IMG/VR virus record: IMGVR_UViG_3300033069_001247
Coordinates: 22,810 to 86,809 of that record
Source: a virus
Lineage: Duplodnaviria > Caudoviricetes
Strand: one strand, 5' to 3'
DNA length: 64,000 nucleotides
Part shown: in pieces, positions 1-38,504 of the stretch
Layout: the number at the start of each line of letters is the position of its first letter
How positions within the stretch are numbered: the stretch's first letter is position 1
The notes under the pieces: generated by a model
Databases searched by the model: none
What the model saw: the letters and a program-made list of their open reading frames with translations, nothing else
What the model was told of the DNA's origin: nothing
Position numbers and translations under genes: made by a program

Positions 1-2
1 AC

Positions 3-1472
3 AAGCTGGTTAACAATCTGCGGGCGTCAGGTATAAATGTCATCCGGGACGGTACGCGGACGCATATCATGGCCCTGACAGACAAAGACATCGACCAGAT
101 GGCAAGTAACCGTGAACTTCGGAACGTGGAAACGGTCGATTGGAAGAACATGGAGCCCGTCAAGGGTGGGTTGTTCGATCAAGAGTTGACCGGTGGGCAC
201 TCGACATCAGCAGGCGGCGGTAACCGCTGGAGCTACATCAAGCTGCACGAACCGTTGCCAAGCCCCGTGATGGCGGAGCCTATTCGCCGAGTGCTTGGTA
301 TCACCGAAAAGAAGTTTGAGGATGTACTGGCCGGGCGTGAGCAGCTCAACGGTAGCACTGGTCCTGGCGCGATTGGTCACGCGTTGAAGTCCATCAACGT
401 GGACAATGAGATCGCACGCGCCCGTGAAGAGATCAAGAGCAACAAGCGGACTGCTCGAGATGCGGCAGTCCGCCGGTTGGGTTACCTCAAGAACGCCAAG
501 CGGTTGAATATCCATCCGGGCGACTGGATGTTGTCCAAGGTTCCTGTGTTGCCGCCCGCATTTCGACCTGTATCAACGATGGGCGCAAATAAGCTGCCAC
601 TGGTAGCCGACGCGAACTACCTGTACAAAGAACTCTGGGACGCCAATCAAAGTCTGAAAGACCTATCGTCCCACCTGGACGAGAATGACATCGGTGACGA
701 ACGATTGAACGTCTACAAGGCATTCAAGGCAGTGACGGGTCTTGGTGATCCGACGCATGCCAAGAATCAAGAACGAAAAGTGAAAGGGATCCTCCAGCAT
801 GTCTTTGGATCATCGCCCAAACTCGGACTTGTCCAACGTCGGCTCCTGGGTTCGACGACCGATCTCGTCGGTCGTGCGGTTATTGCACCTGATCCTGATC
901 TCGATATGGACCAGGTGGGTATCCCTGAAAACCAAGCCTGGACAATCTATCGCCCAGTGCTCATCCGAAACCTTGTCCGAAAAGGCGTCCCTCGCCTGCA
1001 GGCCGCTAAAGCCGTTGAAGAGAAAACCCCGCTCGCTCGGCAGGCACTCCTCTCGGAAATGGATGAAGGCGTGGTAGTGATCAACCGGGCTCCGACGCTG
1101 CATCGTTATGGGATGATGGCAGCGAGACCCCGTCTGGTGAAAGGAAACGTACTCAAGATCAGCCCGCTTGTGGTTGGCGGTTTCGGGGCTGATTTTGATG
1201 GCGATGCCATGCAGTATCACGTCCCTGTCGGTGACGATGAGAAGAAGGAAGCCATCGAGAAGATGCTACCCAGCAGAAATCTGTTGTCGGCTGCCACGTT
1301 TAAGGTTCACATATTACCTACACAAGAGTATATTGGTGGGCTGTACGAAGCGACGGCACGTAAAGACTTGATGAACAAGCCTATCGTGTTCCGTACGAAA
1401 CGTGACGCCATACGTGCCTACAAAGAAGGACGCATCAATGTCGACAGACAAATCCACATCATCGAAGACTAG
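3..1472 (+). CDS. rpoC: RNA polymerase subunit, 5'-truncated by the window: probable beta C-terminus fused to the catalytic N-terminal half of beta-prime
   Basis: GADFDGD catalytic motif (cf. NADFDGD), VVINRAPTLHR, LVGRAVIAPDP, ETVDWKNMEPVKGGLF. The frame is open from base 3 to the ATG at 69 and reads KLVNNLRASGINV, resembling the RpoB C-terminus (LVKELRSLGINI). Confidence 0.93.
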   Translation, partial: KLVNNLRASGINVIRDGTRTHIMALTDKDIDQMASNRELRNVETVDWKNMEPVKGGLFDQELTGGHSTSAGGGNRWSYIKLHEPLPSPVMAEPIRRVLGITEKKFEDVLAGREQLNGSTGPGAIGHALKSINVDNEIARAREEIKSNKRTARDAAVRRLGYLKNAKRLNIHPGDWMLSKVPVLPPAFRPVSTMGANKLPLVADANYLYKELWDANQSLKDLSSHLDENDIGDERLNVYKAFKAVTGLGDPTHAKNQERKVKGILQHVFGSSPKLGLVQRRLLGSTTDLVGRAVIAPDPDLDMDQVGIPENQAWTIYRPVLIRNLVRKGVPRLQAAKAVEEKTPLARQALLSEMDEGVVVINRAPTLHRYGMMAARPRLVKGNVLKISPLVVGGFGADFDGDAMQYHVPVGDDEKKEAIEKMLPSRNLLSAATFKVHILPTQEYIGGLYEATARKDLMNKPIVFRTKRDAIRAYKEGRINVDRQIHIIED

Positions 1473-2034
1473 CACTTGTAAATGGTGTGGTGTGAATAAG
1501 TGCCAACCGTTGGCCAGCCGTTGTCGGTCGTGTCAGGATAGGGTCAATGCCCGCCAGAAGGAGTTGCGGGCAGCAAGAACAGCAGCAGGTCTCTGTAAGT
1601 GCGGTCGCGAGTCGCCGCGAGAAGGGAAGGCTGATTGTCAGCTATGTTTTTCTGAAATGAGTGTGTCACAGAACGTCACGTATCGGAAACGCAAGCTGGC
1701 TGGTCTTTGTAGTTGTGGTGCTGAACCAGACAAAGGATACAAATCGTGCGGCATATGTCGCAACAACTGGAAACGCAAAGGCGAAGTACTTCGTAGACGC
1801 GTGTTCAATCATTACGGGCTGAAGTGCGCCTGCTGTGACGAGGAAACCTATGAGTTCTTGGAGCTTGATCACATTGATGGCGGCGGCAATGATCACAGGC
1901 GTAGTGTGGGTGCTACATACAGGTGGGTGATACGCAACAACTTCCCACCCGGCTTCCAGACATTGTGTTCCAACTGCAACCGAGCCAAGTTTCGTTACGG
2001 GGTATGCCCACACCAGAAACAGAAAAAGAAGTGA
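1438..2034 (+). CDS. HNH endonuclease with three N-terminal Cys-rich Zn-binding repeats
   Basis: C-terminal CACC...LELDHIDG...TLCSNCNRAK HNH core; repeated GLCxCG...CxxC units. ATG 1438 chosen after AAGGAC; overlaps the 3' end of the RNAP gene. Confidence 0.85.
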   Translation: MSTDKSTSSKTSTCKWCGVNKCQPLASRCRSCQDRVNARQKELRAARTAAGLCKCGRESPREGKADCQLCFSEMSVSQNVTYRKRKLAGLCSCGAEPDKGYKSCGICRNNWKRKGEVLRRRVFNHYGLKCACCDEETYEFLELDHIDGGGNDHRRSVGATYRWVIRNNFPPGFQTLCSNCNRAKFRYGVCPHQKQKKK

Positions 2035-2116
2035 CAGCTTTCGTTGCACAACCGCATTCGATAGTATTTCAGTCGACATTCGTGGCTGATCAGGAAGATT
2101 GAAACGGAGATCAATT

Positions 2117-2821
2117 ATGGCAAGGATCAACCCAGCATTGATGGAGCTGGCCAAACACAAGACGTGGTCGTTGATTAAGTCAGCGGCTGTGCCACCCGGT
2201 GGTGCTCCGATGGATCCTGCTGCAGGCGGTGCTCCTCCGATGGATCCTTCCATGATGGGCGGTGCCCCTCCTGGCGGCGCCCCAGCAGGAATGCCCCCTG
2301 CCGGTGCCCCTCCGATGGATCCATCCATGATGGCTGGTGGCGGTGCCCCGATGGCACCTCCGATGGATCCTTCCATGATGGGTGCGCAGCCCGGAATGAT
2401 GCCAGGAGCAGCCCCCCAAAAGCTGAAGCCCGAGCAAATGATGCAGATGCTCGACTTCCGCCTGTACAACATGCAGCAGCAAGTGACTGCTATTATGAAT
2501 CACCTCGGCATCACCGTACCAGCTGGTGCGTTGGTAACACCTCCCGGGTCGCCCACACCGGTTGCTGAAGCTGCTTTACCGGGTGGTCCGCAAGATCCAG
2601 GCCCGCCACAGGCGGCGGGCGGTGGTGGTGATGCGGGCGGCGGGGCTTCGGCGATTTCATCGATCGCACCTATTCAAGGGGCCAGCCCGGAAACCGCGAA
2701 GCAGGCCAGTGTTTCTGTGGGTTCACCATACCGGGCAGTGGCATCAAACGATTTCTCCACAAGTGGCACGATCACGGATCGCATCGCAGCTGTCCGGGCC
2801 TTGCTGGCATTGCAGAGCTAA
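2117..2821 (+). CDS. Pro/Gly/Met-rich low-complexity protein, probable head-associated
   Basis: GGAG RBS before ATG 2117; PPMDPSMM repeats; KSAA and KQAS motifs. Confidence 0.75.
   Translation: MARINPALMELAKHKTWSLIKSAAVPPGGAPMDPAAGGAPPMDPSMMGGAPPGGAPAGMPPAGAPPMDPSMMAGGGAPMAPPMDPSMMGAQPGMMPGAAPQKLKPEQMMQMLDFRLYNMQQQVTAIMNHLGITVPAGALVTPPGSPTPVAEAALPGGPQDPGPPQAAGGGGDAGGGASAISSIAPIQGASPETAKQASVSVGSPYRAVASNDFSTSGTITDRIAAVRALLALQS
2234..2382 (+). repeat. Three dispersed copies of CCTCCGATGGATCCWTCCATGATGG encoding PPMDPSMM
   Basis: Copies start at 2234, 2309 and 2357. Confidence 0.9.
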
Positions 2822-2824
2822 CCC

Positions 2825-3076
2825 ATGAAGATTCAGATCCACCGCAATCTGCGTGACGTTCAGACACTGGATGTCACGCGGGTTGTGGTGCTCGACGAAT
2901 ACGATAACCCTGTCGCCCTGGCCATTGCCCTAGATGACGGAATCATCCTGGCCGAGACGGCAGGTAACCCAGTCGAGTTCAATTCCTTACTGCGAAGCGT
3001 AGGGATCAACAAGACAGTAGTTGTTCACGGTGTCAAGCAAGACCCGCTTCCTACGATCAAACTTTCCGGGCCGTGA
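2825..3076 (+). CDS. Hypothetical protein (83 aa)
   Basis: Fills the gap between flanking genes; stop is 1 nt before the next ATG. Confidence 0.7.
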   Translation: MKIQIHRNLRDVQTLDVTRVVVLDEYDNPVALAIALDDGIILAETAGNPVEFNSLLRSVGINKTVVVHGVKQDPLPTIKLSGP

Positions 3077-3077
3077 C

Positions 3078-6000
3078 ATGCTCAATACGACATTGGGACA
3101 GTTGATGGTCAACCAGGCTTTACCTGCGGAATTACAAGACCATCAACGTGTCTTGGATAAGAAGGGGATCAAGGCACTGCTGCAGCAGGTCGCCGATAAA
3201 CACCCAGACAAGTACAGAGAAATTGCCAAAAGACTTTCTGATATCGGACGTGATGCAGCATTTACGACCGGCGGGTATTCTTTCGGACTGGGTTCGCTGC
3301 GACAATCTGTGGCCGCCCGTAAGATGCGACATGAACTGACATCCAAGCTGCAGGAGATTTACGCATCTCAAGAGCCGGACGATGTCAAAGAACAAAAAAT
3401 CCTGATGACAGTGGGCGGATATCAGAAGCAACTGTCGCAGGATGTAATGAAAGAATCACTCGATGTCCGCAACCCGCTGGCCCTGCAAGTCTTATCCGGT
3501 GCGCGGGGTAATCACACGAATCTGAACTCGCTTCGCGGTGCCGACCTGCTGTACACCGACCATCGTGGTCGAGCAATGCCGATTCCGGTCACCCGTAGCT
3601 ATTCCATGGGGCTCCGCCCGTACGAATACTTTGCGGGTGCCTTCGGTGCCCGCAAAGGTGTGATCGATTTGAAATGCCTTGGTGGTGATACACCAGTGGT
3701 TATGGCAGATTGGTCAGTTAAAAAAATCTGCGATATCAAGCAAGGTGATTACGTGATGGGTTCGGATACAGCTGGACGTCTGCGACCTGTCAAAGTACTC
3801 AATGTTTTCGATAACGGAAAACGTGAATGTTACAATTGGCGTTTTCGTGTTGGATCATGTCGCAAACGATTTGCTGATGTTGTGGCAACTGCTGACCACA
3901 AAATTCTCGCACAGGTTCGTGCTGGTCGACCTGGATCAACATATGCGTATCGCTCAAGCTATACGCCGTTGCCCTTGCCGTTACATACCGCAAAATTGCA
4001 AAAGAAGGCAACCAAAAATGCATTCGTGGCGTGGCCGGCTCGCGGAGAAGTCAATTCCGAAAACGGTATTGCGGAGCCGCGAGCGATGCTGCTTGGGTTG
4101 CTACTTGGTGACGGTTACACACCGGAGAAAACAGGCCATACATTGTCATGCGCTGATCAGTGTTTGATTGACGACACTGCTACGTACCTCGCATCATTGA
4201 ATCTGAAACTGAATCCTCCAAAAGATGGGTACAGTCATCGACTTGTTGAGATCGTTAGATCAAAACAAAAAATGGAAGTCCGTAACAACAGAAACACATT
4301 TGCCGGGACGGGTAATCCGGTGCGACAATGGTTGCACGATGTCGGATGTACCGGAAAACTTGCACACGAAAAACAATTGCCAGCTGTCGTTTGGCAGTGG
4401 AATCGTGACTCCATCTGTCAGCTGATTGGTGGGTTGATCGCAACAGACGGCACAATTGAAGTGCGAAATGATGGTTGTACTGTCAAATTCAAATTGACAA
4501 GTCTGCAAATTGTTTCACAGGTTCAACGACTGTTGGAGTTGCGGTTGGGTATCTGGTGTACACCAATACGTCGTATTCCTGTTGAGACAATACCGCTAGG
4601 TAACTATGACCAGTGGGAGATTACGTTCTCACACCCAGAGGCCATTCGTCGTTTTATTGACTTGGTGTATGTGCCAGGTATCAAACATCACCAGTTGCAA
4701 GAAGGGTTGCGGAAACTGTCTGCTGAACCGCGTAGTGCAGAGATTGGGTTTAAGATTCAATCACGCGAAGCTGTAGGTATGATTCAAACATACGACATTG
4801 AAGTTGATCATCCTGACCATCTCTTCTTATTAGAGAATGGTCTTGTCGTATCAAACTCGGCAACACAGGACGCCGGTTTCTTTGCTAAACAGCTGGTGCA
4901 GGCTGCACATCGATTGTTGGTGTCACAGATTGATGACGAACGCGAGTATGATCATTCAAACCCGCGTGGTTACCCAGTCGATACAGGGGATAATGATACC
5001 GAAGGTGCATTACTGGCTCATCCTATTGGTGGTTACAAACGCAATACTGTGCTCACGCCAAAGATCCTGAAAGAATTGCGGGCCAATGGTATGCGTGAAA
5101 TTCTGGTGCGTAGTCCTACCGTCGGCGGGCCTGCCGATGGTGGTGTTTACGCACGTGATGTTGGCGTCCGTGAACGTGGTGGTATCGCACCTCTCGGTGA
5201 TTATGTCGGCGTCGCAGGGGCGCAGGCTTTAGCTGAGCCAGTTACCCAAAGTCAAATTTCAAGTAAGCATAGCGGCGGAGTGGTCGGTGCGTCTGCTGGG
5301 GCTATTTCTGGGTTCAAGTACATCAATCAGCTGGTGCAGTCCCCCAAGGTGTTTCAGGGCGGGGCCGTGCATTCACAGAAAGACGGTCGCATCACCAACG
5401 TACGACCGGCCCCGCAGGGCGGCACCTATGTCACTGTGGAAAATGAGGACCATTACATCCCACACGGTATTCAGATCCAGGTCAAACGTGGCGACACGAT
5501 CGAAGCTGGTGACGTACTGACGGAAGGGACACCGCAACCGGCGGAGATCGCCAAACACAAGGGTGTAGGTGAAGCCCGGTACTACTTCACCAATACTTTT
5601 CGAAAGGCCCTTACCGATTCGGGCACATACGGGAACCGCCGGAATATCGAACTACTGGCCCGAGGGTTGATCAACCATGTGCGGCTGACGGACGAGGTCG
5701 GTGACGGGATCCCTGGTGACGTTGTACCATACCAGTTACTGGAATCACGATGGCAGCCCAGGGAAGGCCACACGATCAATGCACCAGAACGGGCAGTCGG
5801 TCAGTATCTGGAACGCCCCGTGCTGCATTACACTGTTGGTACGCGTGTGCGACCGTCTATGCTGTCGAAGTTCAAGCAGTACGGCGTAGCCAATCTGGCT
5901 GTACATAAAGACCCACCACCGTTCGAACCCGAGATGATTCGTGGAATGGCGAACGCAGCTAACGATCCCGACTGGATGACAAGGATGCTTGGCAGCTATC

Positions 6001-6140
6001 AGAAGAACAGTATTCTGGATGCTGCACACAACGGCGCAGTCTCTGACGAAGCAGGTAGCAGCTTTGTTCCAGCGCTGGCCCGCGGCGTGGATTTCGGGCG
6101 TGTTGGACTAACCAAAGGATGGAAGCCGCAGACACCGTAA
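3078..6140 (+). CDS. rpoC: RNA polymerase beta-prime C-terminal half, intein-containing
   Basis: TTLGQLMVN and LDKKGIKALL at the N-terminus; bridge helix GARKGVIDLK/SATQDAGFFAKQL; trigger helix/loop GDYVGVAGAQALAEPVTQSQISSKHSGG; sandwich-barrel motif VKRGDTIEAGDVLTEG. ATG 3078 preferred over TTG 3021. Confidence 0.93.
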   Translation: MLNTTLGQLMVNQALPAELQDHQRVLDKKGIKALLQQVADKHPDKYREIAKRLSDIGRDAAFTTGGYSFGLGSLRQSVAARKMRHELTSKLQEIYASQEPDDVKEQKILMTVGGYQKQLSQDVMKESLDVRNPLALQVLSGARGNHTNLNSLRGADLLYTDHRGRAMPIPVTRSYSMGLRPYEYFAGAFGARKGVIDLKCLGGDTPVVMADWSVKKICDIKQGDYVMGSDTAGRLRPVKVLNVFDNGKRECYNWRFRVGSCRKRFADVVATADHKILAQVRAGRPGSTYAYRSSYTPLPLPLHTAKLQKKATKNAFVAWPARGEVNSENGIAEPRAMLLGLLLGDGYTPEKTGHTLSCADQCLIDDTATYLASLNLKLNPPKDGYSHRLVEIVRSKQKMEVRNNRNTFAGTGNPVRQWLHDVGCTGKLAHEKQLPAVVWQWNRDSICQLIGGLIATDGTIEVRNDGCTVKFKLTSLQIVSQVQRLLELRLGIWCTPIRRIPVETIPLGNYDQWEITFSHPEAIRRFIDLVYVPGIKHHQLQEGLRKLSAEPRSAEIGFKIQSREAVGMIQTYDIEVDHPDHLFLLENGLVVSNSATQDAGFFAKQLVQAAHRLLVSQIDDEREYDHSNPRGYPVDTGDNDTEGALLAHPIGGYKRNTVLTPKILKELRANGMREILVRSPTVGGPADGGVYARDVGVRERGGIAPLGDYVGVAGAQALAEPVTQSQISSKHSGGVVGASAGAISGFKYINQLVQSPKVFQGGAVHSQKDGRITNVRPAPQGGTYVTVENEDHYIPHGIQIQVKRGDTIEAGDVLTEGTPQPAEIAKHKGVGEARYYFTNTFRKALTDSGTYGNRRNIELLARGLINHVRLTDEVGDGIPGDVVPYQLLESRWQPREGHTINAPERAVGQYLERPVLHYTVGTRVRPSMLSKFKQYGVANLAVHKDPPPFEPEMIRGMANAANDPDWMTRMLGSYQKNSILDAAHNGAVSDEAGSSFVPALARGVDFGRVGLTKGWKPQTP
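3675..4856 (+). mobile_element. Intein (394 aa) with LAGLIDADG homing endonuclease
   Basis: Begins CLGGDTPVVMAD, ends YDIEVDHPDHLFLLENGLVVSN followed by +1 Ser; LLGLLLGDG and LIGGLIATDG motifs; visibly AT-richer than the flanks. Confidence 0.95.
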
Positions 6141-6228
6141 GAGTCGTTAGTCTCGCGTTCACACGGCAGCTAAGCTAACCTGTGGATAGCCATAACGGCG
6201 CAGACGACCTGACATGGAGGTTATTCGG

Positions 6229-8706
6229 ATGCTCACAGCACTACCCGCCGGTAAGGCATACTGGTTGGATATTTGCCGCAGTTACTCAGACCGTGACTGG
6301 CTGACGAAGTCTGCGTCCCTGGGCGGCGACGGTCAAGACACGTCATTCGAACAAGCATTCAGTAACCTGGCCCACGCCTATTTACGGGACAAGGCCCCAA
6401 CACTCCTCGATCACGAGCTGGGTTTCCAGCTGATCGATCGGAACCAGGAAAACACCAAGGCCATTGGTGTCTTTGCATTCAAGGTAGGCAGCCAGCGGCT
6501 GTTCGCCCCGGTATTCTTCCTGCGAGGCGAACTCAAGGGGCACGAGCTGCTGTACCTGCGTAATCAAGACGCGTTCGTACCGCTCAAGGAAAACCGGATC
6601 AATGATATTCTGAACCGGAAGCCAAACATTCTGGGTAACGGGGTGGCCCGGCAAACATCGCAACTTGGTGTTCGCTTCCCGGATTTGAACCGCATATCAC
6701 AGTCGCCCAGCAAGATGGCGTCTGACCGGTTCAGTCAGAGCGTTCAGCCGTTTTTGCCTGTGATGGCTCACCTGGCAACGCAGGACATGCAGGAATCGAT
6801 TTCTGAGTTCCAGAAACACTGCAGTGAGCGATTAAACCTGGCACACTTCATGAAGCAGGCGTCACTGCCAGCGCTGGAAGCCGTTGTGGACCTTATGCAC
6901 CGCAAACCAGCGATCGGGGAAGCCTTTGATCGTTGGTACGGAATGAGCGTCATCAGCGACGCCATCAAGGAAGCCTCTGCGCGGTTGTCGATGCACTCGA
7001 TCACCGACAACCCGTACGTCGCGGTAAATAGGAACCAACCCATCTGGGGGTCATTGCTGTCGCACCTGGAGAAGACAGCCGCTGATGACGACAATGGGCC
7101 AGATTACCAGCAGAAACTGGAGATCATCACTCCAGAGAGTACGCGGGTGCAGGGTTCTATCATTGCCCTCACGGAAGACGACCAAGAGAAGCTGCTGAAC
7201 GACAACGTCTTGATCAAGGACCATCGCAAGGGTGATGAGGTCTCTGTACCTGTCAACCTGCAGGTCGAGGAGAAGTTGTCGAATCCAACAGACACCGGCA
7301 TCTACCAGATGCTGTGCAAGTCGAATGACTTTGAGAAGTGTCTGGTGGTGACGAACCCACACGGACCAAACGGACGCAAAAACGTCAGTACCGTTGTGCG
7401 GTTGGACGACTCACAACGGAACTGGGCCAACTTCACCCCGCAAGGGATTTTCACGTTGGGTCAGGACGAAAGCCTGCTCGGCGGCGAAGAGTCGTGGCGG
7501 GAATGGTTCGACAGCCTGCCGGACATCACCACCATCTCGGATACGTCCAACGGTGTTTACATGGCGGTTGGCCCACGCCGAAACGCCACGTTGCCGTTTA
7601 CGGTGCGTCGTAAGATCGGCACCAACGGCGATACCAAGACCTACGAAGTCCGGTTCTTCTCCGACACAACAGACTCTCAGCCATTCGGTGTCTCGCGGTC
7701 CATGGACAGCTACTCGAATTACGACAGCTGGCGGGATGGTGAACGGCTACACCTGGATGCCAAGATCGGAACGCAGATCCGGTCAGCTGCAGGTGACGTG
7801 TACCTGCCTGTGGGTTACAAGCTGCTGAAGCTAACTGCCACCAAAAAGGTCAGTGACGGGGATGACGACGGTCCGGACATGGAGTGCTCTTGCAGCGAGA
7901 CGCTGCCTATCACCCCTGGTAACCTGCTGGACGCCCGGCGGATGCTGCTGGAGAAGACAGCAGCGCTGAAGGTGACACATGATGGCGTGCGTTACCACAT
8001 CAACGAGCGTGATAACCTGACCCCTGTGAACTCGTTGATCCATTTGGTCCGTGATCATGGTCTGACTGAAGCGGATAGCCGCTTCATCCTGAAAGAGGCT
8101 GCGGCCCAGAGTCACAAGGGCTCCTCGTTTAGTTGTCGGGTGAAATACGCCAATCCATTCTTGTCGCAGGGTGGGCCGACGGCACCAGGCTTCAACGATG
8201 ATGCTGCGATGAACGGCTTTAACCCTATGGGTTTTGCGGGGCAGTCGCAGCAAGGTTACGAACAGGATCTGCCTGTTCCGGATATGTCCGGACGTAACAC
8301 TGACCCCAATATCTACAACGTCAATCCGGCCAACATGCCGGAGCCGATGGACGCCAACGGTGTCAATCGAGCAATCCAGTCAGGTCAACGTGAGGTATTT
8401 GATGTTTCCATGATCGGCTCTATGCTACGGGCCGTGCGTGACGACACGATGATTGATCGTTACCTGCCTGACCTGCTGAAGGCAGTGGACCGTCTTGGGC
8501 GTATCCTGTTCCAGTTCTACTGGCACCAGGATAAGTTTGCAGAACGGTACGGTAAGCAGGACATGCCTGAGTTGGAAGACTCGCTGCGTAACGCCTTCGA
8601 GATGCTCGATGACGTTGAACTGTTCCTGCAACAGAAGACGATTCAGCCGTACCCGGAAGAAGATGTCCGTGACATCGATCTCGCCAACTCGGACGACCAT
8701 AATTAA
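6229..8706 (+). CDS. Large head-module protein of unknown function (about 825 aa)
   Basis: Long ORF; GGAGG at 6216-6220 favours ATG 6229; seven K-x-A-[A/S] motifs. Confidence 0.8.
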   Translation: MLTALPAGKAYWLDICRSYSDRDWLTKSASLGGDGQDTSFEQAFSNLAHAYLRDKAPTLLDHELGFQLIDRNQENTKAIGVFAFKVGSQRLFAPVFFLRGELKGHELLYLRNQDAFVPLKENRINDILNRKPNILGNGVARQTSQLGVRFPDLNRISQSPSKMASDRFSQSVQPFLPVMAHLATQDMQESISEFQKHCSERLNLAHFMKQASLPALEAVVDLMHRKPAIGEAFDRWYGMSVISDAIKEASARLSMHSITDNPYVAVNRNQPIWGSLLSHLEKTAADDDNGPDYQQKLEIITPESTRVQGSIIALTEDDQEKLLNDNVLIKDHRKGDEVSVPVNLQVEEKLSNPTDTGIYQMLCKSNDFEKCLVVTNPHGPNGRKNVSTVVRLDDSQRNWANFTPQGIFTLGQDESLLGGEESWREWFDSLPDITTISDTSNGVYMAVGPRRNATLPFTVRRKIGTNGDTKTYEVRFFSDTTDSQPFGVSRSMDSYSNYDSWRDGERLHLDAKIGTQIRSAAGDVYLPVGYKLLKLTATKKVSDGDDDGPDMECSCSETLPITPGNLLDARRMLLEKTAALKVTHDGVRYHINERDNLTPVNSLIHLVRDHGLTEADSRFILKEAAAQSHKGSSFSCRVKYANPFLSQGGPTAPGFNDDAAMNGFNPMGFAGQSQQGYEQDLPVPDMSGRNTDPNIYNVNPANMPEPMDANGVNRAIQSGQREVFDVSMIGSMLRAVRDDTMIDRYLPDLLKAVDRLGRILFQFYWHQDKFAERYGKQDMPELEDSLRNAFEMLDDVELFLQQKTIQPYPEEDVRDIDLANSDDHN

Positions 8707-8718
8707 GCGGAGTGACTC

Positions 8719-9144
8719 ATGAGCAAGCCTTGGAGCTATGGTCCAAAGCAGTTTACGATCCCGGCTGGTGCAGCCTCTGTGATCCAGCTGGACGTGCCGC
8801 ACCGTGCGGTATTGCGACGGTTGGGTATCCGCACCACTGTGGACAGTATCACTGGACCGTTCGAGATCTACACCAGCGAGGACGCTGCATTGGCTGCGAA
8901 GGCCAGCGGCGTTACAGCGACGACCTCGTACAGAGGAATGGTTGTCCCGGCTGCCAGTTTCGTGATGCACAGCGGAGCACTGGTTGGCGGTGTTTACTCC
9001 AGTGCATTGGATGTCCCGTACGAAAATGCCGATGGTTCGCCGTCAAATTGCATCCAACGGTTGTGGTTGCGAATCGTGCCGTCTGGTACGGGTAACCTGA
9101 CGTTCACAATCAACATGACGATGCAAACACCGTCCATGATGTAA
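8719..9144 (+). CDS. Hypothetical beta-rich protein, possible minor virion protein
   Basis: GGAG RBS; alternating hydrophobic beta-strand pattern; position in the head module. Confidence 0.65.
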   Translation: MSKPWSYGPKQFTIPAGAASVIQLDVPHRAVLRRLGIRTTVDSITGPFEIYTSEDAALAAKASGVTATTSYRGMVVPAASFVMHSGALVGGVYSSALDVPYENADGSPSNCIQRLWLRIVPSGTGNLTFTINMTMQTPSMM

Positions 9145-9177
9145 TTGACAGTCGGTCTCCAGTGAAGCGAGCAGAGC

Positions 9178-10173
9178 ATGTCGTTGTTGACCTCCGCAAG
9201 TAACCCGTTCCGCCCGGCAGACTGGAGGTGGCAACGAGCCCAAGCGATTGCAGACAGGTCCCGGGACAGTATGCCACCATCACGACAACGTGATGGTGTG
9301 GAGAGCTTCAAGTGGATCACAACGGCTGTTCGTTTTCTGCGAGAGTTCAACAACGCCCGTACTGATGTCGCTAAAGAACTACTCTCTGTCCGTCGCCCCG
9401 GGATATTCTGGGCACACCACATCTGGACACAGACCAGCAACCCGCTGCGATACAGCATCGAAGCCCAGATCCTAGCCCGTTGTGATAATCATCTCATCGG
9501 GTACAAATGCAATGTGCATCCGGATGTCATCGCCAACTACGAGGCTTTGTTCTTCAATGTCCGGGAGAAGTTGCAACACCGCAGTTACATCCTGAATGTC
9601 GTGATGGGGCCTGCCGTCCATCAGGGTTTGTCAGAACGGGACTACGGGTTGTTGTGGAAGCTGTACGGTTACTTCCTGGGACCGCACGTTGTTGATGCGC
9701 TGGAAGGAAAGTTCGTCAATCCGGTCTGGTGTAACTCTGCGGCAGGTGTCGGTGCCGCCATCATGGACGACTCAGTGGCAACGCTGAAGTTCAAAGCAGC
9801 CCTGGCCTCGAAGACAGTGCCCGTCAACCAATACACGCAGTTGCAGATCCTGGACGCATTCACAAAGTTCGTGGAGATCGAACGCAACACAGACAGCGCA
9901 GGCAAGGCGCAAGACCAGATTCTGGACCACATCTCGGCCATGATGACGACGCTGCCGTTCAGTGTCGGTGGTCGAGCTGCAGAAAAACTGGTACAACGTG
10001 ATGTACAGCCGATTGAAGTTTTCGAACGTACTGCATTGGAACTGACGTTCGAAGAGACGCTTCGTATGTCGGCTTACCAGCCGATTGCTCACAAGCAGAT
10101 TCTGGAATCGCTACAGTTTCCCGCACTTCCAGCACCGACACTGTCGCCGACGCCACAGACCAGGGAGGGTTAG
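9178..10173 (+). CDS. Hypothetical helical protein (331 aa)
   Basis: Long ORF, tightly packed with neighbours; no motif recognised. Confidence 0.75.
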   Translation: MSLLTSASNPFRPADWRWQRAQAIADRSRDSMPPSRQRDGVESFKWITTAVRFLREFNNARTDVAKELLSVRRPGIFWAHHIWTQTSNPLRYSIEAQILARCDNHLIGYKCNVHPDVIANYEALFFNVREKLQHRSYILNVVMGPAVHQGLSERDYGLLWKLYGYFLGPHVVDALEGKFVNPVWCNSAAGVGAAIMDDSVATLKFKAALASKTVPVNQYTQLQILDAFTKFVEIERNTDSAGKAQDQILDHISAMMTTLPFSVGGRAAEKLVQRDVQPIEVFERTALELTFEETLRMSAYQPIAHKQILESLQFPALPAPTLSPTPQTREG

Positions 10174-16912: not shown

Positions 16913-17845
16913 ATGGCTGCTTCGCAAGCCGAAACTGTGTTGCTGAACGAGACGCTGTTCGATCAGCTGCTCACTCCGGGTATGGAGAAGAAGGCTGTTG
17001 ACGCTGTCAACGACTTCACCCGTACCAAGATGCGTGAAGACGGGTTCTTCCGTCGGATCATGCCACCGGTCAAGATTTCGAATGACGAACTCGATCGTCA
17101 GTCGGATACTCCCAAGCCGGTCAAGATCATCGACAAGGAACCAGACAGCCCTGCGGCTGTCTCGATCCCATTTGGTACGCTGCCCACCAGCGTGTACATC
17201 AAGGGTCCCAGGTACCGCGTGAGCTTCGACCGAATCGTGACCCCGCGGTTCCAGGTCGACGTGGAAGAGATGCGAACCTGGGTCATGGATATTCGGCAAG
17301 TCCTTTCGGACAATGCACTTAAAGACGTTTTGGCAGAGGAAGACGGCAAGTTCATCGCGGGCTGTAACCAGCTCATGATCGGACCCGATGTTCCTGTGCC
17401 ATACAACGGCAACCAGGTGCAGTGGAAGACGCTGGACGGCGGCCTGACTCGCGAGACTCTCCAAGAGGCTCGCAAGATCATGCCACGCGGTCCTTCGCAT
17501 CTCGAGGCTCACACCGCCCTGATCAACAACGTCACCGTGAAGGAACTGGAGAAGTTCCCACGCGACGAAATGGGTGGTGACTTCAGCCAGGACGTTCTCA
17601 AGAACGGATGGGCTGAAGCGAACTTCGCAGGCATGAACTGGATCATCAGTATCAAGCGCGACCTGATCCCTGACGACAGCATGTTCATGTTCTCGGACCC
17701 TCGGTTTATCGGGAAGGCGTTTCTTCTCGAAGACACCACAATGTACGTGAAACGCGAAGCGTTCATGATTGAGTTCTTCGCATACCAGACCATGGGTGCG
17801 ACGATCGGTCATCCTGGCGGCATCGCCCGGGCAGACTTCGCGTAA
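16913..17845 (+). CDS. Major capsid protein (HK97-fold)
   Basis: 310 aa; strong RBS; position after protease, scaffold and decoration genes; REDGFFRRIMPP, EEDGKFI and the C-terminal strand pattern fit phage MCPs. Confidence 0.82.
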   Translation: MAASQAETVLLNETLFDQLLTPGMEKKAVDAVNDFTRTKMREDGFFRRIMPPVKISNDELDRQSDTPKPVKIIDKEPDSPAAVSIPFGTLPTSVYIKGPRYRVSFDRIVTPRFQVDVEEMRTWVMDIRQVLSDNALKDVLAEEDGKFIAGCNQLMIGPDVPVPYNGNQVQWKTLDGGLTRETLQEARKIMPRGPSHLEAHTALINNVTVKELEKFPRDEMGGDFSQDVLKNGWAEANFAGMNWIISIKRDLIPDDSMFMFSDPRFIGKAFLLEDTTMYVKREAFMIEFFAYQTMGATIGHPGGIARADFA

Positions 17846-17868
17846 GTTGTACTTGCTTGAAGACTTCG

Positions 17869-17915
17869 CCTCTGGTAGGGTAGGGCTTGACAGCTCTCCC
17901 TACCAGAGGATTTTT
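17869..17915 (+). terminator. Long hairpin after the MCP gene, overlapping the RBS of the next gene
   Basis: CCTCTGGTAGGG (17869-17880) pairs perfectly with CCCTACCAGAGG (17898-17909); inner stem extends it; ATTTTT follows. Confidence 0.75.
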
Positions 17916-17917
17916 CG

Positions 17918-18619
17918 ATGACCGAAAGCATCTACCAGCGACGAATCAAAGCAGGCAATTGCGGGAAGTGTGGCGATCCACGCGAAGACAAAGACGCCAA
18001 GATGTGCCACGACTGTGCCGGTAAGGAAAGAGCCCGGTCAGCAGCCAGACGTGTGAAAACAGCAGCCAACGGAATGTGCAGTGCGTGTGCTGCACGGCCC
18101 CGCCTACCGAACAGCAGTCGTTGTGAGAAGTGCAAGCAGACATCGGCGGCGTCCACAAAACGCCGCCAGGACAGGTTGAAAGCAGCCGGTCTCTGTGTTC
18201 ACTGCGGTGTACCAGTGCCTGCCGGACGCGTGACGTGTGAAGTCCACAGTCAACAGATGAGCAAACGGGCAACAGACAAGTACCACGAACGAAAAGCCGC
18301 CGGTACCTGTTGTCGCTGTGACGAGCCTGTTGTGAATGGGCAGCCCACCTGTGAACGCCACACGGCTATGGCCGCGGCCAACCGCAAAGCACTCCGCAAC
18401 AAAGTCCTGAAGCGATACGGTGGCAAATGCCGCCGGTGCAAGGAAACCAGAATCGACCAGCTGGGAATGTCCCGCATTCCCAGCAAAGCAGATCCAGCAA
18501 CGAAGGGGATGGGTGGTCACCATCTCAACTGGTGGTTGAAGAAGAATGGGTTCCCTAAAGGATTCAGGATTCTTTGCCAGACGTGCAAGGCGACTCTCCG
18601 ACAAGCAAAGAAGGGGTAG
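17918..18619 (+). CDS. Cys-rich Zn-repeat protein with a degenerate HNH-like C-terminus
   Basis: Four G-x-C-x-x-C...C-x-x-[C/H] repeats; the C-terminus YGGKCRRC...GFPKGFRILCQTC parallels the 1438-2034 product but lacks its DH motif. Confidence 0.75.
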   Translation: MTESIYQRRIKAGNCGKCGDPREDKDAKMCHDCAGKERARSAARRVKTAANGMCSACAARPRLPNSSRCEKCKQTSAASTKRRQDRLKAAGLCVHCGVPVPAGRVTCEVHSQQMSKRATDKYHERKAAGTCCRCDEPVVNGQPTCERHTAMAAANRKALRNKVLKRYGGKCRRCKETRIDQLGMSRIPSKADPATKGMGGHHLNWWLKKNGFPKGFRILCQTCKATLRQAKKG

Positions 18620-18678
18620 CCCGCTGTCGGATTCAAATACCATCTTCGATCGCAAGATCAGTTCTCATGGAGGCGAAC

Positions 18679-19062
18679 ATGCCGCAGCAAATGCTCACAG
18701 CTCAGGAAGCTCACACCGTTTTCCACAACAAGGTGTACGCACCAGTCTTCTTCGAGAAGCTGGCCCAGGATTACAACATCCGACCCACCAGCGAAACAGA
18801 GGCGCAAGAGATGCTGGTGATGGCATCGCAGTTGCGATCGCTGCATGAAGCAGAAAACGAAAAGCGGGCTGCCAGCCGACCTGATCCAATGGCGATGGCC
18901 CGCAACATCCTCGACAACCAGCTGGCCCAGTATGGTTTCAGCAAGCAGGCTGGTACCGTACAGAACCAGAACCGCGTCAAGCAGTCCGCTGCTGCCGCGT
19001 CGTTTGACTCCGAACTGGCTCACGCCGCCCTGTCCGTGCTGGCACAGCACAACGCGGCGTAA
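18679..19062 (+). CDS. Small head-module protein
   Basis: GGAGG RBS before ATG 18679; KRAA and KQAG motifs. Confidence 0.72.
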   Translation: MPQQMLTAQEAHTVFHNKVYAPVFFEKLAQDYNIRPTSETEAQEMLVMASQLRSLHEAENEKRAASRPDPMAMARNILDNQLAQYGFSKQAGTVQNQNRVKQSAAAASFDSELAHAALSVLAQHNAA

Positions 19063-19135
19063 CCCCATTCGCGACACACGCAACCGCAGTTCCTGATCGA
19101 GATACTCGTGGTACTCAGCCACATGGAGGTTCAAA

Positions 19136-19498
19136 GTGCCTGTTAACCCATCTGCTGAAGAACTCTACACGACCGTAGAGAATATGACCGACTCCGAGCG
19201 GACCTGTGGGTTCCTCGGGCCTCGCGGAATGACCCTGGCGCCCGGTGAGATCGTTCTCATTCCGGGTAACCTTGTTGCGACTCTGGGTGCCGAAGCGGCT
19301 CGCGGCAAGCGACGCCGGTTCGATGGACTGGAGCGTTCGATGAAGGCGGGCCGCATCCGCATCAACAGTACGCCTGCTCCTGTACTGTACGACGCGGAAG
19401 ATGGCGTACCCAAGTCGCTGGCGATTGCTGGCGGTGTCCTGGGTACCGTGGATCCCGACTACAACGAACACGGATCAGTCGCGTACACCCCGGTTTAA
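19136..19498 (+). CDS. Hypothetical virion protein (GTG start)
   Basis: ACATGGAGGTT RBS; lies between capsid and neck genes. Confidence 0.7.
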   Translation: MPVNPSAEELYTTVENMTDSERTCGFLGPRGMTLAPGEIVLIPGNLVATLGAEAARGKRRRFDGLERSMKAGRIRINSTPAPVLYDAEDGVPKSLAIAGGVLGTVDPDYNEHGSVAYTPV

Positions 19499-19530
19499 CC
19501 ACCGTCGCCGTACGATCCTGCTTGTTCATG

Positions 19531-19566
19531 CGGCGATCCGAAACTTTCGGGTCGCCGTTTCTATTT
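19531..19566 (+). terminator. Rho-independent terminator
   Basis: CGGCGATCCGAA-ACT-TTCGGGTCGCCG followed by TTTCTATTT. Confidence 0.8.
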
Positions 19567-19588
19567 ACCGCGATAACCGGATACCGCT

Positions 19589-20629
19589 ATGCCCGTCACA
19601 GCCACGCCGATCGCTGATAACGCACCAGGCATCTGCACCAATGAACCGGTGCTTCCTGGCGGCCGCGCTCCAGCCCCGCTACCTGTGACCTGTCTGAACC
19701 AGCACATCATCGTCCCGCGGATTCCCGCTGACGCCGGGACCGGTAAGACGATCCTCACCAGGACGATGGCGATCGAGATCCGCGGCGAACAGTTCGCCAC
19801 GATCCAGTACGTGATGCGTGACCGCAATGGTAACCCTGTCGACCTGACACACTGTCTGTGTATGCCCGACGGTAGTTTGAGCGCCTCTGCCAGTCTTTCG
19901 GTGGGAGACTGCCCTTGTCAGTACAAACTGGTCTTTCGCCTTAACGAGTACCTCACCGGCGGGCGGGGCAAAGAGTTTAACGTACGCGCTGTTACCCCTG
20001 CGGCGGGTGAAGTTGAAGTCGACCTGCAGCCAGAAGATACCAGGCTCCCTGGTATCTACTTTGGCGAATTCGCCATGATTGAGTGTCATGACGGCGAAGA
20101 TACCTGCGACTCAACAGTGATATTCTCCAATCGCGTGTATGTGCATATCGGACGCAACCTGTGGAACAACCGCATGAACTGCGGTGCCCCAGCTGGCCCT
20201 CCGTCTATCTCGGAAGTCCGCCTGCATTTGCGAGACACGCGGCCCGAGGAGAGCTACCTGCTCGACAACGTAGCGTTCAGTGACGAGGAGATCGCACAGG
20301 CCACTATCCTTCCTGTAGAATACTGGAACGAGGTGCCACCGCCGATCGGCATTTACACTACCGCAACGTTCCCATATCGCTACCATTGGCTCATGGCGAT
20401 CGCTGGTTATCTGTTCCTCATCGTGGCGGAGCAGCAGCGACGCAACAACTTGGCCTACTCCGCGGGCGGAGTACAGGTCAATGACCAGAACCGCGAACCG
20501 AACTACGAGCAGGCGGCCCAGCGCCGCATCACGGAGTTCAAAGACTTCGTCCGGGCCAAGAAAGTGTCAATCAACGTTTCTCAGGCCATGGGCTCCGTCG
20601 GTTCGTCCTACGGTCATCGTCGATTGTGA
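19589..20629 (+). CDS. Head-tail adaptor/neck protein with N-terminal BppU/Ig-like domain
   Basis: RDRNGNPVDLT and GEVEVDLQPEDTRLPGIYFGEF (BppU-like); helical C-terminus EVRLHLRD...FSDEEI...SAGGVQVND typical of connector proteins. Confidence 0.65.
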   Translation: MPVTATPIADNAPGICTNEPVLPGGRAPAPLPVTCLNQHIIVPRIPADAGTGKTILTRTMAIEIRGEQFATIQYVMRDRNGNPVDLTHCLCMPDGSLSASASLSVGDCPCQYKLVFRLNEYLTGGRGKEFNVRAVTPAAGEVEVDLQPEDTRLPGIYFGEFAMIECHDGEDTCDSTVIFSNRVYVHIGRNLWNNRMNCGAPAGPPSISEVRLHLRDTRPEESYLLDNVAFSDEEIAQATILPVEYWNEVPPPIGIYTTATFPYRYHWLMAIAGYLFLIVAEQQRRNNLAYSAGGVQVNDQNREPNYEQAAQRRITEFKDFVRAKKVSINVSQAMGSVGSSYGHRRL

Positions 20630-20642
20630 CAGGGAGGCTATC

Positions 20643-20843
20643 ATGCGTTCTGTGCAAGTTCAGTTCTGTACCGAGCGTGCTTCGGCGAAGTCATTTCGGT
20701 TCCCGCTGCAGACGATCAGGGCGGCAGTCACGGATCTGCGATCACAGGTCCACAGAGCATTGAAAAACTGCTACATCGGTTTCGGCCCCGGTCACAAGGT
20801 CCGAACCCGTCAGCTGGGAGTCCAGGGGCATGCCTCAGAGTGA
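20643..20843 (+). CDS. Small basic hypothetical protein (66 aa)
   Basis: AGGGAGG RBS (same as the protease gene) before ATG 20643; fills an otherwise 200-nt gap. Confidence 0.5.
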   Translation: MRSVQVQFCTERASAKSFRFPLQTIRAAVTDLRSQVHRALKNCYIGFGPGHKVRTRQLGVQGHASE

Positions 20844-22095: not shown

Positions 22096-22146
22096 GCAGG
22101 GTTGCTCATCTGACCCGTGCCCCATATCCTATTTACGAGGTCGAGC

Positions 22147-22335
22147 ATGTCCGACAACCCGCGCAGTACGCAGCAACGCCAGACACACAAGGCGTTTTAT
22201 CCGACGTTGTCGATGCGTGACTATCGACCTGATGAGCAGCAAGTCATGGAAGCACTTGGGAAGGCTCCGATAACGCAAGGAGGCGTCAGTGACCACCACG
22301 CCGGACTGTCCGCAAGGACCCGAAAACCCGGATGA
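22147..22335 (+). CDS. Possible small hypothetical protein
   Basis: GAGG before ATG 22147; fills a gap; overlaps the next gene. Confidence 0.3.
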   Translation: MSDNPRSTQQRQTHKAFYPTLSMRDYRPDEQQVMEALGKAPITQGGVSDHHAGLSARTRKPG

Positions 22336-23011: not shown

Positions 23012-23046
23012 ACCATTCCACTCATCGTCCGTACCCAGGGAGGGTC

Positions 23047-36074: not shown

Positions 36075-37698
36075 TCACGCCGTCATCAAGGTAAAGAATA
36101 CCCGGGCCGTGATCGGCAAGCATACGTTCAATGACGTGGTGCAGTACGTATCCGGCTGGGGATTGAACAGTATTCCGATGGCATCACTACAGGTGGCTGT
36201 TGGTCGTAATGTCAACGGCAATGCACTGGCAAAAATTCATCACGCTGCCAAGGACTTGCGGAATCAGCAAAAGGCAGAAGTCTATGTGACCTTTGAAGTC
36301 ACTGATGTGGAAGATGCCGATCCAGGTGTCGAGACAGGCGAGATCAAAGTTTTTGAGGGAACTGTTGTCGGTACTGGCTGGCAGCGGGGTCCTAATGGTG
36401 GTTACTTCACGATCAACCTGTTGCATTGGTTAGGTGAACTCAACAACTCATCAGCTATCTCGGCATCGCTACATCCTGGTTGTCCGGCAGACATGACATT
36501 CCCGGCTGTGTTTCCGGCGTTCGGATTGAACACGACAACACCGAAGGTCACACCGATTCCATCGTTCGTTCCAGATATCAGCGGTGATGTGGCTGGTGGT
36601 TTTGATGACCTCTGGGGCAATGTGTTTTTACCGTGGCTGAATACGATCGCCAGCGATGACGCTTTCGATCGGGCTTATGATGACGCCAATGCGAAAGGGA
36701 ACCCTAACGTTATTGCAGCGCTTAAACGGATGGTGGTGAACGCAGACGGGACACCGTTAGCTGTTGATCTGAACGGAGCCTCTGCAGCAGTCTTTGCTGA
36801 TTCGCTACGACTGGCGCTGGTCAACGAGATCGGCAGCAACTGGATCAACACGACGCTCTGGGGCAAGATTATCGGTGAATGGGCACCGGCTTACTGGTTC
36901 TCTGTTGTACCCCGCGTAGAAGACGCCTTGGTTGTACCGTTTACAGGGGGCCTGCAGGGAGCGCCATGGGCCGTCATTGGTGACGAAGATTATGACAGCG
37001 CGGACATGAACGCACAGCTGCAGCAAGTGCTGCGTGGTGTCAGCATTGTGCATCCTATCACGACATCCACATCATTCGATCTTAATCTCGGCATACCACA
37101 AGCATCCCGCAGTGGGGCACTGGGTATCTACCAGCCCGACGATATCAAAACAGGTATGATCCTGTTCAAAGATGCACCAAAGTGGCTCTGCAATACCAAC
37201 GTCGCCCACTTGATGTCGGCAGACGCTGAAGGGGTGTTGGATGCTGAAGTCACAACCGCTTTGGATGAGATCAATTCTGCTGCCGTTACAAACCGCAGAG
37301 ACGAGGCCAACGACCTGGGACTGCTTCGTAATGTAGCCTCCGCATATGCTCACCAGTGGTATGTACTGGAGTCACTGAAAGGCAGAACAGGTGAGGTTGC
37401 CGGTAAATTGCGATTCGATATCGCCCCGGGCTCCAACGTTCTGGTTGTGGCGGGAGGGGCCAAAAACGTCCCGGATGCTAAGAACGTCACGCAGAACATC
37501 TTTGCGACGGTAGTCCAGGTGTCGTACGTGATTAACGCTGAAACACGGCAAGCCGGTACGGCTTTCAGCTTGGCCCACATTCGCACAGAAGCAGAAAACG
37601 AATTGGAGTCTACGTCTGTCGCCAAGCCGCCGTTGTACCAGAAAGCCTGGTCTGGTGCTAAACTGGTCGTTGCAGCTCCTGGACCTGAAAAGGCGTAA
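36067..37698 (+). CDS. Baseplate hub protein (T4 gp27/Mu gp44-like)
   Basis: WGLNSIPMASLQV, KVFEGTVVG and C-terminal LRFDIAPGS...TVVQVSYVIN patterns; context. Confidence 0.6.
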   Translation: MSSHAVIKVKNTRAVIGKHTFNDVVQYVSGWGLNSIPMASLQVAVGRNVNGNALAKIHHAAKDLRNQQKAEVYVTFEVTDVEDADPGVETGEIKVFEGTVVGTGWQRGPNGGYFTINLLHWLGELNNSSAISASLHPGCPADMTFPAVFPAFGLNTTTPKVTPIPSFVPDISGDVAGGFDDLWGNVFLPWLNTIASDDAFDRAYDDANAKGNPNVIAALKRMVVNADGTPLAVDLNGASAAVFADSLRLALVNEIGSNWINTTLWGKIIGEWAPAYWFSVVPRVEDALVVPFTGGLQGAPWAVIGDEDYDSADMNAQLQQVLRGVSIVHPITTSTSFDLNLGIPQASRSGALGIYQPDDIKTGMILFKDAPKWLCNTNVAHLMSADAEGVLDAEVTTALDEINSAAVTNRRDEANDLGLLRNVASAYAHQWYVLESLKGRTGEVAGKLRFDIAPGSNVLVVAGGAKNVPDAKNVTQNIFATVVQVSYVINAETRQAGTAFSLAHIRTEAENELESTSVAKPPLYQKAWSGAKLVVAAPGPEKA

Positions 37699-38504
37699 TG
37701 ATGCCATTCAAATCCATCATCGACCAATCACTACCATTCGCCTCCGAAGGTTCCAGCGATGCTACGCGGTTGGAGCCGGATTTCGCGGATGATTTCCACG
37801 CATGGAAAGGCAATGACACACCAGTCACACGGGGAGCGTTGCTGAAACGAGTATCCCCGGTGATTGATCGCGCTGTGGTCTCCTACGCAGGAGCTGATGC
37901 CAGCCCTTCGGTACGCAGTCGTGCCAAGCTGATGACGCTACAGGCCTTCAAAACATACGACCCCGCCCGTGGAACTATGCGGACGCACCTGCTATCGCAA
38001 TTGCAGGGTCTGCGACGTACGGCCGCGCAGAGCAATCAAATCATCTCTGTCCCTGAACGGGTAGCCCTGGATCGGCAGCATCTGCGAGAAGCAGAAGAAG
38101 AGCTACGTGATAAATTCGGGCGTGAGCCCAGCGACATGGAGGTCGCAAATTACACGGGGTTGTCGATGCGCCGTCTCGGGTACGTGCGGCAGGCCGCCCC
38201 GGGTACGAATACAGGGTCGATCCTGGACGAGGAGGGTGATGTCTACAGCCCGGCCTCTAATGTCCCGGGAGCACACAGCCAGGACGATGCATGGGCAGAC
38301 ATGGTCTACTACGACCTGGGGGACACAGATCGCACGATCATGGAATACACTTTGGGTCTACGAGGGGCACCTGTGTTGTCCAACGTAGACCTTGCTGCAA
38401 AACTCGGTGTGTCACCTGGAGCCGTCAGCCAGCGGAAGGCCAAGATTCAGGCAATGCTGGACGCCAGATCTGAAATGGATCCTTTTGGAGGACGTAATGC
38501 CTAA
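37698..38504 (+). CDS. RNA polymerase sigma70-family factor (SigF/FliA-like regions 2-4)
   Basis: Region 2 AFKTYDPARG...; region 3 LRDKFGREPSDMEVANYTGLS; region 4 HTH DLGDTDRTIMEYTLGL...SNVDLAAKLGVSPGAVSQRKAKI. Confidence 0.88.
   Translation: MMPFKSIIDQSLPFASEGSSDATRLEPDFADDFHAWKGNDTPVTRGALLKRVSPVIDRAVVSYAGADASPSVRSRAKLMTLQAFKTYDPARGTMRTHLLSQLQGLRRTAAQSNQIISVPERVALDRQHLREAEEELRDKFGREPSDMEVANYTGLSMRRLGYVRQAAPGTNTGSILDEEGDVYSPASNVPGAHSQDDAWADMVYYDLGDTDRTIMEYTLGLRGAPVLSNVDLAAKLGVSPGAVSQRKAKIQAMLDARSEMDPFGGRNA

Follow-up and report, generated by a model that had tools for sequence, protein, structure and literature searches.

Polymerase genes at the start of the window

The window analysed here is a 64,000-nucleotide stretch of phage DNA that comprises bases 22810-86809 (G000:C1:22810-86809) of an 86.8-kb linear viral contig in IMG/VR. 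Its first genes encode beta and beta' sequences of a multisubunit RNA polymerase (RNAP) whose subunit boundaries have been redrawn, and tailed-phage genes follow shortly downstream, one for a head protein and one for a tail sheath. The DNA upstream of the window was available as the contig segments L002 and L003, where a position in L003 minus 12809 gives the position in the window. Residues of beta and beta' are numbered after E. coli RpoB and RpoC by alignment, while the precursors of the two polymerase chains are labelled P0006 (2205 amino acids, aa) and P0002 (1020 aa).

Only the 3' end of the first polymerase gene (3..1472, plus strand) falls within the window. An original prediction, made from the sequence of the window, held that this catalytic open reading frame (ORF) has no stop codon upstream of position 69 and reads from an RpoB C-terminus into RpoC N-terminal motifs. 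Both statements were borne out: frame 3 contains no stop codon between base 3 and the TAG at 1470-1472, and KLVNNLRASGINV leads directly to Rpb1_1, Rpb1_2 and the GADFDGD motif. The ORF terminates 38 aa beyond QEYIGGLYEAT, where about 40 had been estimated. Extension into the upstream DNA revealed one ORF of 2205 aa (L003:7664-14281, corresponding to bases 17664-24281 of the contig), which continues for 5.1 kb beyond the window and begins with an ATG 5145 bases before it. Neither a stop codon nor a separate start was found just upstream of base 1, and the upstream part of the ORF contains RpoB domains. In Pfam searches, Rpb2_2 and Rpb2_6 (E 3e-47) matched the front of the protein, while Rpb1_1 and Rpb1_2 matched its back.

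Alignment to the E. coli subunits placed the fusion point precisely. Residue 1729 of the ORF corresponds to RpoB 1337, and residues 1816-2202 correspond to RpoC 160-550. The final residue of beta (E. coli E1342) is the T of ...SGINVIRDGT, and RTHIMALTDKD, which follows next after this T, matches beta' from D18 onward (DAIKIALASPD). Since the end of beta abuts beta' at about residue 18 in the alignment, the two subunits are fused without a linker, and beta' lacks its first ~17 residues. The part of the gene that lies in the window encodes the final 18 residues of beta, the junction (~54-60) and beta' ~18-553 including GADFDGD. That is, chain 1 (beta-beta'N) consists of a complete RpoB and of beta' up to about residue 553, and its C-terminus reads ...QIHIIED. 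Both catalytic barrels are present. The barrel of beta is represented by the Rpb2_6 match and by a GDKL-CGRYGDKG lysine motif that becomes continuous once an intein is removed, and the barrel of beta' by Rpb1_2 (E 1e-25) and a Mg loop that reads GADFDGD. In addition, beta' has lost its N-terminal zinc ribbon, with ~28 residues in place of the ~90 found in bacteria.

The rest of beta' was predicted to restart at TTLGQLMVN, three genes downstream, and this is where we located it. After three ORFs, an ATG at 3078 (MLNTTLGQLMVN) opens the beta'C precursor gene (3078..6140, plus strand), whose 1020-aa product spans the TTxG motif, the bridge helix, Rpb1_5 (E 7e-16) and the hybrid domain through to the C-terminus. 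The restart falls at about E. coli residue 569 (MLNTTLGQ, with TTVGR at 572 in the E. coli alignment), and merely a variable loop of ~15 residues is absent between beta'N and beta'C compared to E. coli. Both the bridge helix and the modules at the C-terminus of beta' are present, and GARKG...SATQDAGFFAKQLVQ is restored on intein excision. Thus, fusion and split both exist and coexist in this phage polymerase.

Conservation of the layout and its surroundings

A scan of IMG/VR yielded 89 relatives, 80 of which were kept (given L numbers, such as L005); many are located on ~200-kb contigs, several of them with terminal repeats. About 65 of the 80 encode beta and beta'N in a single ORF of ~1460-1490 aa (longer where inteins are present) that has the same end point, and in these a beta'C ORF of ~630 aa begins ~0.9-1 kb downstream. 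The junction peptide is conserved among the relatives. When a 300-aa segment spanning the junction was used as query, 764 clusters (50% identity) were matched at E <=1e-30 among 1.84 billion representatives. Most of the best 150 of these 764 clusters match the segment end to end in one stretch, and the cluster lengths among the matches listed lie between ~1440 and 3350 aa, reflecting a variable intein load. Identical boundaries in dozens of independent contigs rule out chance or an assembly error. A group of related loci (L057, L058, L064-L066, L068 and L062) encodes longer beta'C ORFs of 1290-1656 aa, with 650-800 residues past the end of homology; in this one subclade the extra residues constitute a C-terminal extension or a fusion.

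Cultured phages share the layout. Salmonella phage Arash (OQ632216) encodes gp206 (1525 aa, beta-beta'N) and gp216 (beta'C, a 628-aa open frame) with the same cut site, and a sigma-like protein is common to Arash and the phage studied here. However, identity is ~31%, Arash has no inteins, and its gap between the two genes measures 4.7 kb and holds nine other genes. The same beta-beta'N plus beta'C architecture was found in Vibrio phages D181, D148 and D69, again at ~31% identity and without inteins. In D181 (L086:5085-10599), beta is additionally cut into two genes that flank an annotated homing-endonuclease gene, while its downstream half stays fused to beta'N. In the public records of Arash and the Vibrio phages, the proteins appear as hypothetical or as 'subunit beta'; the authors of the Arash paper call them beta and beta' and leave a fusion unmentioned (PMC10585845). 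This layout has been conserved across a large phage lineage and is not a peculiarity of one contig; particular to the window are three inteins and an inserted HNH gene. The original prediction therefore stood as far as the layout is concerned, while it had missed the three inteins, the HNH gene as a sporadic insertion, the lineage-wide conservation and the cultured phages Arash and D181.

Other phages retain different gene structures. In Rhizobium phage RHph_Y65 and Vibrio phage Va2, beta' is neither fused nor split. Four phage contigs that span 130-183 kb encode beta and an entire beta' in one ORF of ~2040-2080 aa (L082:7064-13309, L097:3092-9310, L098:3125-9310 and L099:3116-9229), and these unsplit forms are viral counterparts of the RpoBC proteins of Helicobacter and Wolbachia. 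We calculated a quick IQ-TREE phylogeny of 25 beta' sequences rooted on three bacteria. The phage clade was separated from the 3 bacterial sequences with a Shimodaira-Hasegawa-like approximate likelihood ratio test (SH-aLRT) support of 100, RHph_Y65 and Va2 were sister to the fused clade (SH-aLRT 100), and L082 was sister to all split forms (SH-aLRT 90). This topology favours an order of events in which the fusion would have come first and a single split would have followed. A placement of L082 inside the split group was not rejected by the approximately unbiased (AU) test (p 0.10), and its unsplit form could possibly represent a secondary re-fusion.

The gap between beta'N and beta'C in the window measures 1.6 kb and contains three genes, all on the plus strand. 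The first (1438..2034) encodes an HNH homing endonuclease (phrog_2255, E 4.9e-8); its ATG at 1438 is preceded by AAGGA, and the gene overlaps the final 35 nucleotides (nt) of beta'N in a different frame. Among the 80 relatives, only L004 and L034 have an HNH gene at this site (3 of 81 loci counting the window), and this sporadic occurrence identifies it as a mobile insertion and not as the cause of the split. In L015 (L015:11473-12099) and L016, the same spot is occupied by an ORF of 209 aa that weakly resembles methyltransferases, with scores under the Pfam cut-offs. Different kinds of insertion seem to be tolerated after beta'N.

The other two genes of the gap are conserved. Gap gene 1 (2117..2821) encodes 234 aa from the ATG at 2117 and gave tblastn matches at the same place in 60 loci; an ORF of 215-267 aa follows beta'N in nearly all loci of the main clade. 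Its protein combines a Pro/Gly/Met-rich low-complexity stretch (PPMDPSMM repeats) with a conserved central helix. Gap gene 2 (2825..3076, 83 aa) is likewise kept in the gap by nearly all main-clade relatives, with products of ~80 aa, and was characterized through a 25-sequence alignment and an AF2 model, which shows five strands and one helix at a predicted local distance difference test (pLDDT) score of 91. Its TGA stop codon lies 1 nt upstream of the beta'C ATG, a spacing which suggests that the two genes may be translationally coupled. No Pfam or PHROG match was obtained for either gap gene, and the model of gap gene 2 had no Foldseek match at E <=0.001 (best VIA Z 2.5). Directly after beta'C follows a conserved gene for an 830-aa protein (6214..8706, plus strand) with syntenic homologues in 67 loci. 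Searches of Pfam, PHROG and the ESM Atlas with this protein returned nothing, and weak similarity was detected solely to the gene following beta'C in Vibrio phage D181. When window positions 1-9200 were scanned for promoters and terminators, the counts were no higher than in shuffled sequence.

Inteins in the polymerase genes

By alignment to the intein-less orthologues of L005, which are 71-73% identical, we mapped three exact insertions, all of which are LAGLIDADG inteins. Two of them lie in beta upstream of the window and one in beta'. Intein 1 comprises P0006 residues 428-788 (...FLRTPE/C...WSGN/SGKVG, slashes marking the borders) and intein 2 comprises P0006 residues 1161-1518 (...VGDKL/C...WSGN/CGRYGDKG), such that both interrupt conserved active-site motifs of beta (TPE/S and GDKL/CGRYGDKG). 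Intein 3 (3675..4856, plus strand; P0002 residues 219-612, 394 aa) is inserted in the bridge helix (GARKGVIDLK/C...VVSN/SATQDAG). All three display the hallmarks of inteins, namely Cys at position 1 and a terminal Asn followed by Cys or Ser, with the junctions C...GN/S, C...GN/C and C...SN/S. LAGLIDADG_3 was detected in intein 2 (E 1e-10) and intein 3 (E 5e-12), the latter of which also matched Hom_end_hint. Intein 1 had no Pfam match; it is 25% identical to intein-like segments elsewhere, and LGEG and LAEG motifs were identified by eye. Splicing at the mapped borders would yield chains of 1486 aa (from 2205) and 626 aa (from 1020). The exteins contain one cysteine in total, which is the +1 nucleophile of intein 2, compared to 26 cysteines in the inteins.

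The related phages are a hot spot for inteins. At least seven insertion sites were found (L079, L062, L065, L108 and others), among them 428, 1161, 1559, 1638 and 1662 in beta, ~1992 in beta'N and the bridge helix of beta'C, with more in the long beta'C ORFs. At P0006 position 1662, in the C-terminal part of beta, L057 contains an apparent natural split intein (L057:9077-9421 and L057:9710-9838), which likewise occurs in L058, L064 and L065/L066. The upstream ORF ends in a ~115-aa N-intein (CFTGDTEV..., with a weak Intein_splicing match). The downstream ORF has its own GAGGTGGA ribosome-binding site, a GTG start and a 42-aa C-intein ending VVSN/S; this is followed by the C-terminal ~55 residues of beta in fusion with beta'N. 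Such 'unfused' forms fall inside the fused clade, and they probably rebuild beta-beta'N via protein trans-splicing.

A further peculiarity was observed at the GDKL/xGRYGDKG site in several relatives. Directly after the intein, a 6- or 7-nt insertion starting with a stop codon (TGAGGT, TTGAAGG or TAACGAT) breaks the motif between RYG and DKG. It was found at L062:5810-5830 (identical in L061 and L076), at L042:9390-9430 and in L108 near 5475. The insertion keeps the reading frame in L062 and shifts it in L042 and L108, no in-frame start follows, and it recurs across different lineages. One possibility is recoding.

A probable two-chain enzyme and its place among known polymerases

We consider it very likely that the two genes specify the core of a bacterial-type multisubunit RNAP made of two polypeptides, beta-beta'N and beta'C. 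In this model, both beta inteins would splice out of the first precursor to give chain 1 with the GADFDGD loop. Removal of the bridge-helix intein from the second precursor would give chain 2, which carries TTxG, the bridge helix, the trigger-loop region and the C-terminal modules. Together, the spliced chains would supply every conserved core element, and they may assemble non-covalently, like cyanobacterial gamma and beta'. In the 1990s, Severinov and colleagues reportedly engineered active E. coli beta-beta' fusions, and when E. coli beta' was divided at the site used in chloroplasts, the pieces are said to have assembled into active enzyme in work of the same group. Both rearrangements should thus be structurally tolerable.

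Further subunits and factors were sought in the contig and its relatives. For alpha and omega, no match to PF01000, PF01193 or PF01192 was obtained, either in the contig or in the genomes of four relatives with 98-100% completeness, while 14 of 14 control genomes were positive; divergent versions may have escaped detection. Specificity would be provided by a divergent sigma-like protein from the structural module. In the tail and baseplate part of this module, we found a gene (37698..38504, plus strand) for a divergent sigma-70-family protein of 268 aa with a Sigma70_r3 match (26.3 bits, cut-off 25.3) and a C-terminal helix-turn-helix. It was found only through its homology to Arash gp10, with an E value of 1.4e-9 for the window protein and of ~1e-18 for its counterparts in four complete relatives; neither Sigma70_r2 nor r4 of Pfam produced a usable match in the contig or five relatives. 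The product of 37698-38504 is the probable specificity factor of the polymerase.

Several points weigh against the two-chain model. Our evidence for this phage comes from its genes alone, from which we infer splicing, assembly, activity, sigma use and packaging, and the IMG/VR contig has an estimated completeness of ~43%. The first residue of the catalytic loop is G and not N, both here and in 52 of the 80 motif occurrences among the ORFs of the relatives, which have either G or N at the first position of the xADFDGD Mg loop. Furthermore, the beta inteins end in GN and the third in SN, compared to the usual HN, and splicing competence is assumed. Finally, the case for virion packaging is based on one distant relative of ~31% identity.

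That relative is Arash. By analogy with it, the virion would contain the enzyme and deliver it along with the DNA, so that it could carry out early transcription. Mass spectrometry of Arash virions gave the top spectral count for gp206 (3516), with 1210 for gp216 and 467 for the sigma gp10 (PMC10585845), and on this basis the polymerase is probably carried in the virion of the phage studied here. A real but unlikely alternative is that the genes encode a non-virion polymerase for middle or late transcription and that the Arash particle signal represents carry-over. The Arash authors themselves allow for carry-over of abundant proteins in particle preparations (PMC10585845), and many other enzymes were detected in the same preparations. 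However, gp206 was the most abundant protein by spectral count, with gp216 and gp10 high as well, and the genes lie in or beside the structural module, with the portal immediately upstream in Arash and the head protein and tail sheath downstream in the window. We therefore favour the virion-packaged enzyme.

It is very improbable that the 1.6-kb gap is an intron, or that the two halves are joined by protein trans-splicing, either of which would result in a full-length beta-beta' chain. Group I introns with endonuclease ORFs are frequent in phage genes, and the relatives are rich in inteins, with even a split intein elsewhere in the enzyme. Yet an Rfam search of window positions 1-7000 at E <=1 detected no intron, its sole match being a chance long non-coding RNA. 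The gap also contains two conserved protein genes, and seven of the nine genes in the 4.7-kb Arash gap are on the opposite strand. In addition, neither intein blocks nor a Cys/Ser/Thr nucleophile context are present at the ends ...QIHIIED / MLNTTLGQ, which also have no extra length, and the E. coli alignment brings the halves together with nothing but the variable loop missing.

We give still less credence to the split as a recent accident, in which the HNH gene inserted into an intact beta-beta' gene of this contig. The HNH gene does immediately follow and overlap the end of beta'N, and homing endonucleases do split phage genes, for example between the beta halves in D181. But the split occurs at the same residue in ~65 relatives without the HNH gene, which occupies this site in just three of the 81 loci, and the distant phages Arash and D181 have the same split. 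HNH insertion as the cause was rejected on account of this sporadic distribution. An assembly or sequencing artefact, in which a frameshift produced a false fusion or a false stop produced a false split, is next to impossible: the contig is metagenomic and some relatives have odd stops or frameshifts elsewhere in the gene, but the boundaries are identical in dozens of independent assemblies and in cultured phage genomes, and the junction peptide is conserved.

The layout differs from known natural rearrangements. Alignments to PDB structures and to E. coli supported the earlier claim that a fusion and a split just before TTxGR coexist here, with boundaries unlike those of Helicobacter and Wolbachia, cyanobacteria, and phiKZ and AR9. 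Helicobacter and Wolbachia RpoBC likewise have beta continuing in frame from its C-terminus into the N-terminus of beta'. However, these cellular genomes encode the whole of beta' in the fusion, whereas chain 1 halts at beta' ~553 and the remainder lies 1.6 kb downstream. With cyanobacterial and plastid RpoC1 (gamma) and RpoC2, the phage enzyme shares the division of beta' between the catalytic loop and the funnel and bridge-helix modules. But cyanobacterial gamma runs ~65 residues beyond the end of phage chain 1 (gamma 558/625 aligns with phage beta'N 486/489 in the PDB alignment), and RpoC2 begins at about residue 12-20 of phage beta'C (RpoC2 residues 6-14 align with beta'C 23-26). The cyanobacterial cut is thus located on the opposite side of TTxGR, ~20 core residues later than the phage cut. 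That is, the phage beta' is cut before TTxG, and cyanobacterial gamma is not fused to beta.

Among phage enzymes, those of phiKZ and AR9 are likewise two-barrel RNAPs that lack alpha and omega and whose subunit boundaries have shifted, and one set is packaged in the virion (PMC7598289; PMC7824862). In these, however, beta and beta' are each split and none is fused, the sequences are extremely divergent and there is no sigma, whereas the enzyme described here has a sigma-like partner and retains ~30% identity to bacterial beta' across ~390 residues. Reviews of jumbo-phage RNAPs treat the phiKZ/AR9 type only (PMC7598289; PMC7824862). The mReC lineage, whose beta and beta' were found by cellular COG models, branches apart from cellular enzymes (Weinheimer & Aylward 2020, PMC7481178). 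It resembles the present lineage in its tailed-phage contigs, some >200 kb, and our tree also sets the phage enzymes apart from the three bacterial ones. Compared by description, beta and beta' are two subunits in the mReC study, where neither a fusion nor a split nor inteins are mentioned (PMC7481178). In the phage literature, with subscription journals outside our coverage, we found no description of the combined fusion and split. The layout is a new architectural variant of phage-encoded multisubunit RNAP.

Tentatively, fusion followed by fission may have given rise to a minimal RNAP that is free of alpha and omega, nearly devoid of cysteine and sigma-dependent, and that would be packed into the capsid and injected. 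In this scenario, the fusion would replace alpha-assisted assembly. The inteins in catalytic motifs, including the split intein that would rebuild the fusion, could then be more than parasites and might gate maturation, for example by timing or redox state.

The subunit boundaries of multisubunit RNAPs are among the most conserved gene structures known. Natural exceptions, such as the fusion in Helicobacter, the splits in cyanobacteria and archaea and the fragmentation in phiKZ and AR9, have each been informative on assembly. The polymerase described here can be aligned to bacterial RNAP with confidence, yet it is built as beta-beta'N plus beta'C with no recognisable alpha or omega, an architecture that the public labels 'subunit beta' and 'hypothetical' hide. 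This makes it a tractable system for RNAP assembly without alpha, for the packaging and injection of a large enzyme, and for the tolerance of inteins in the bridge helix and the active-site loop of beta.

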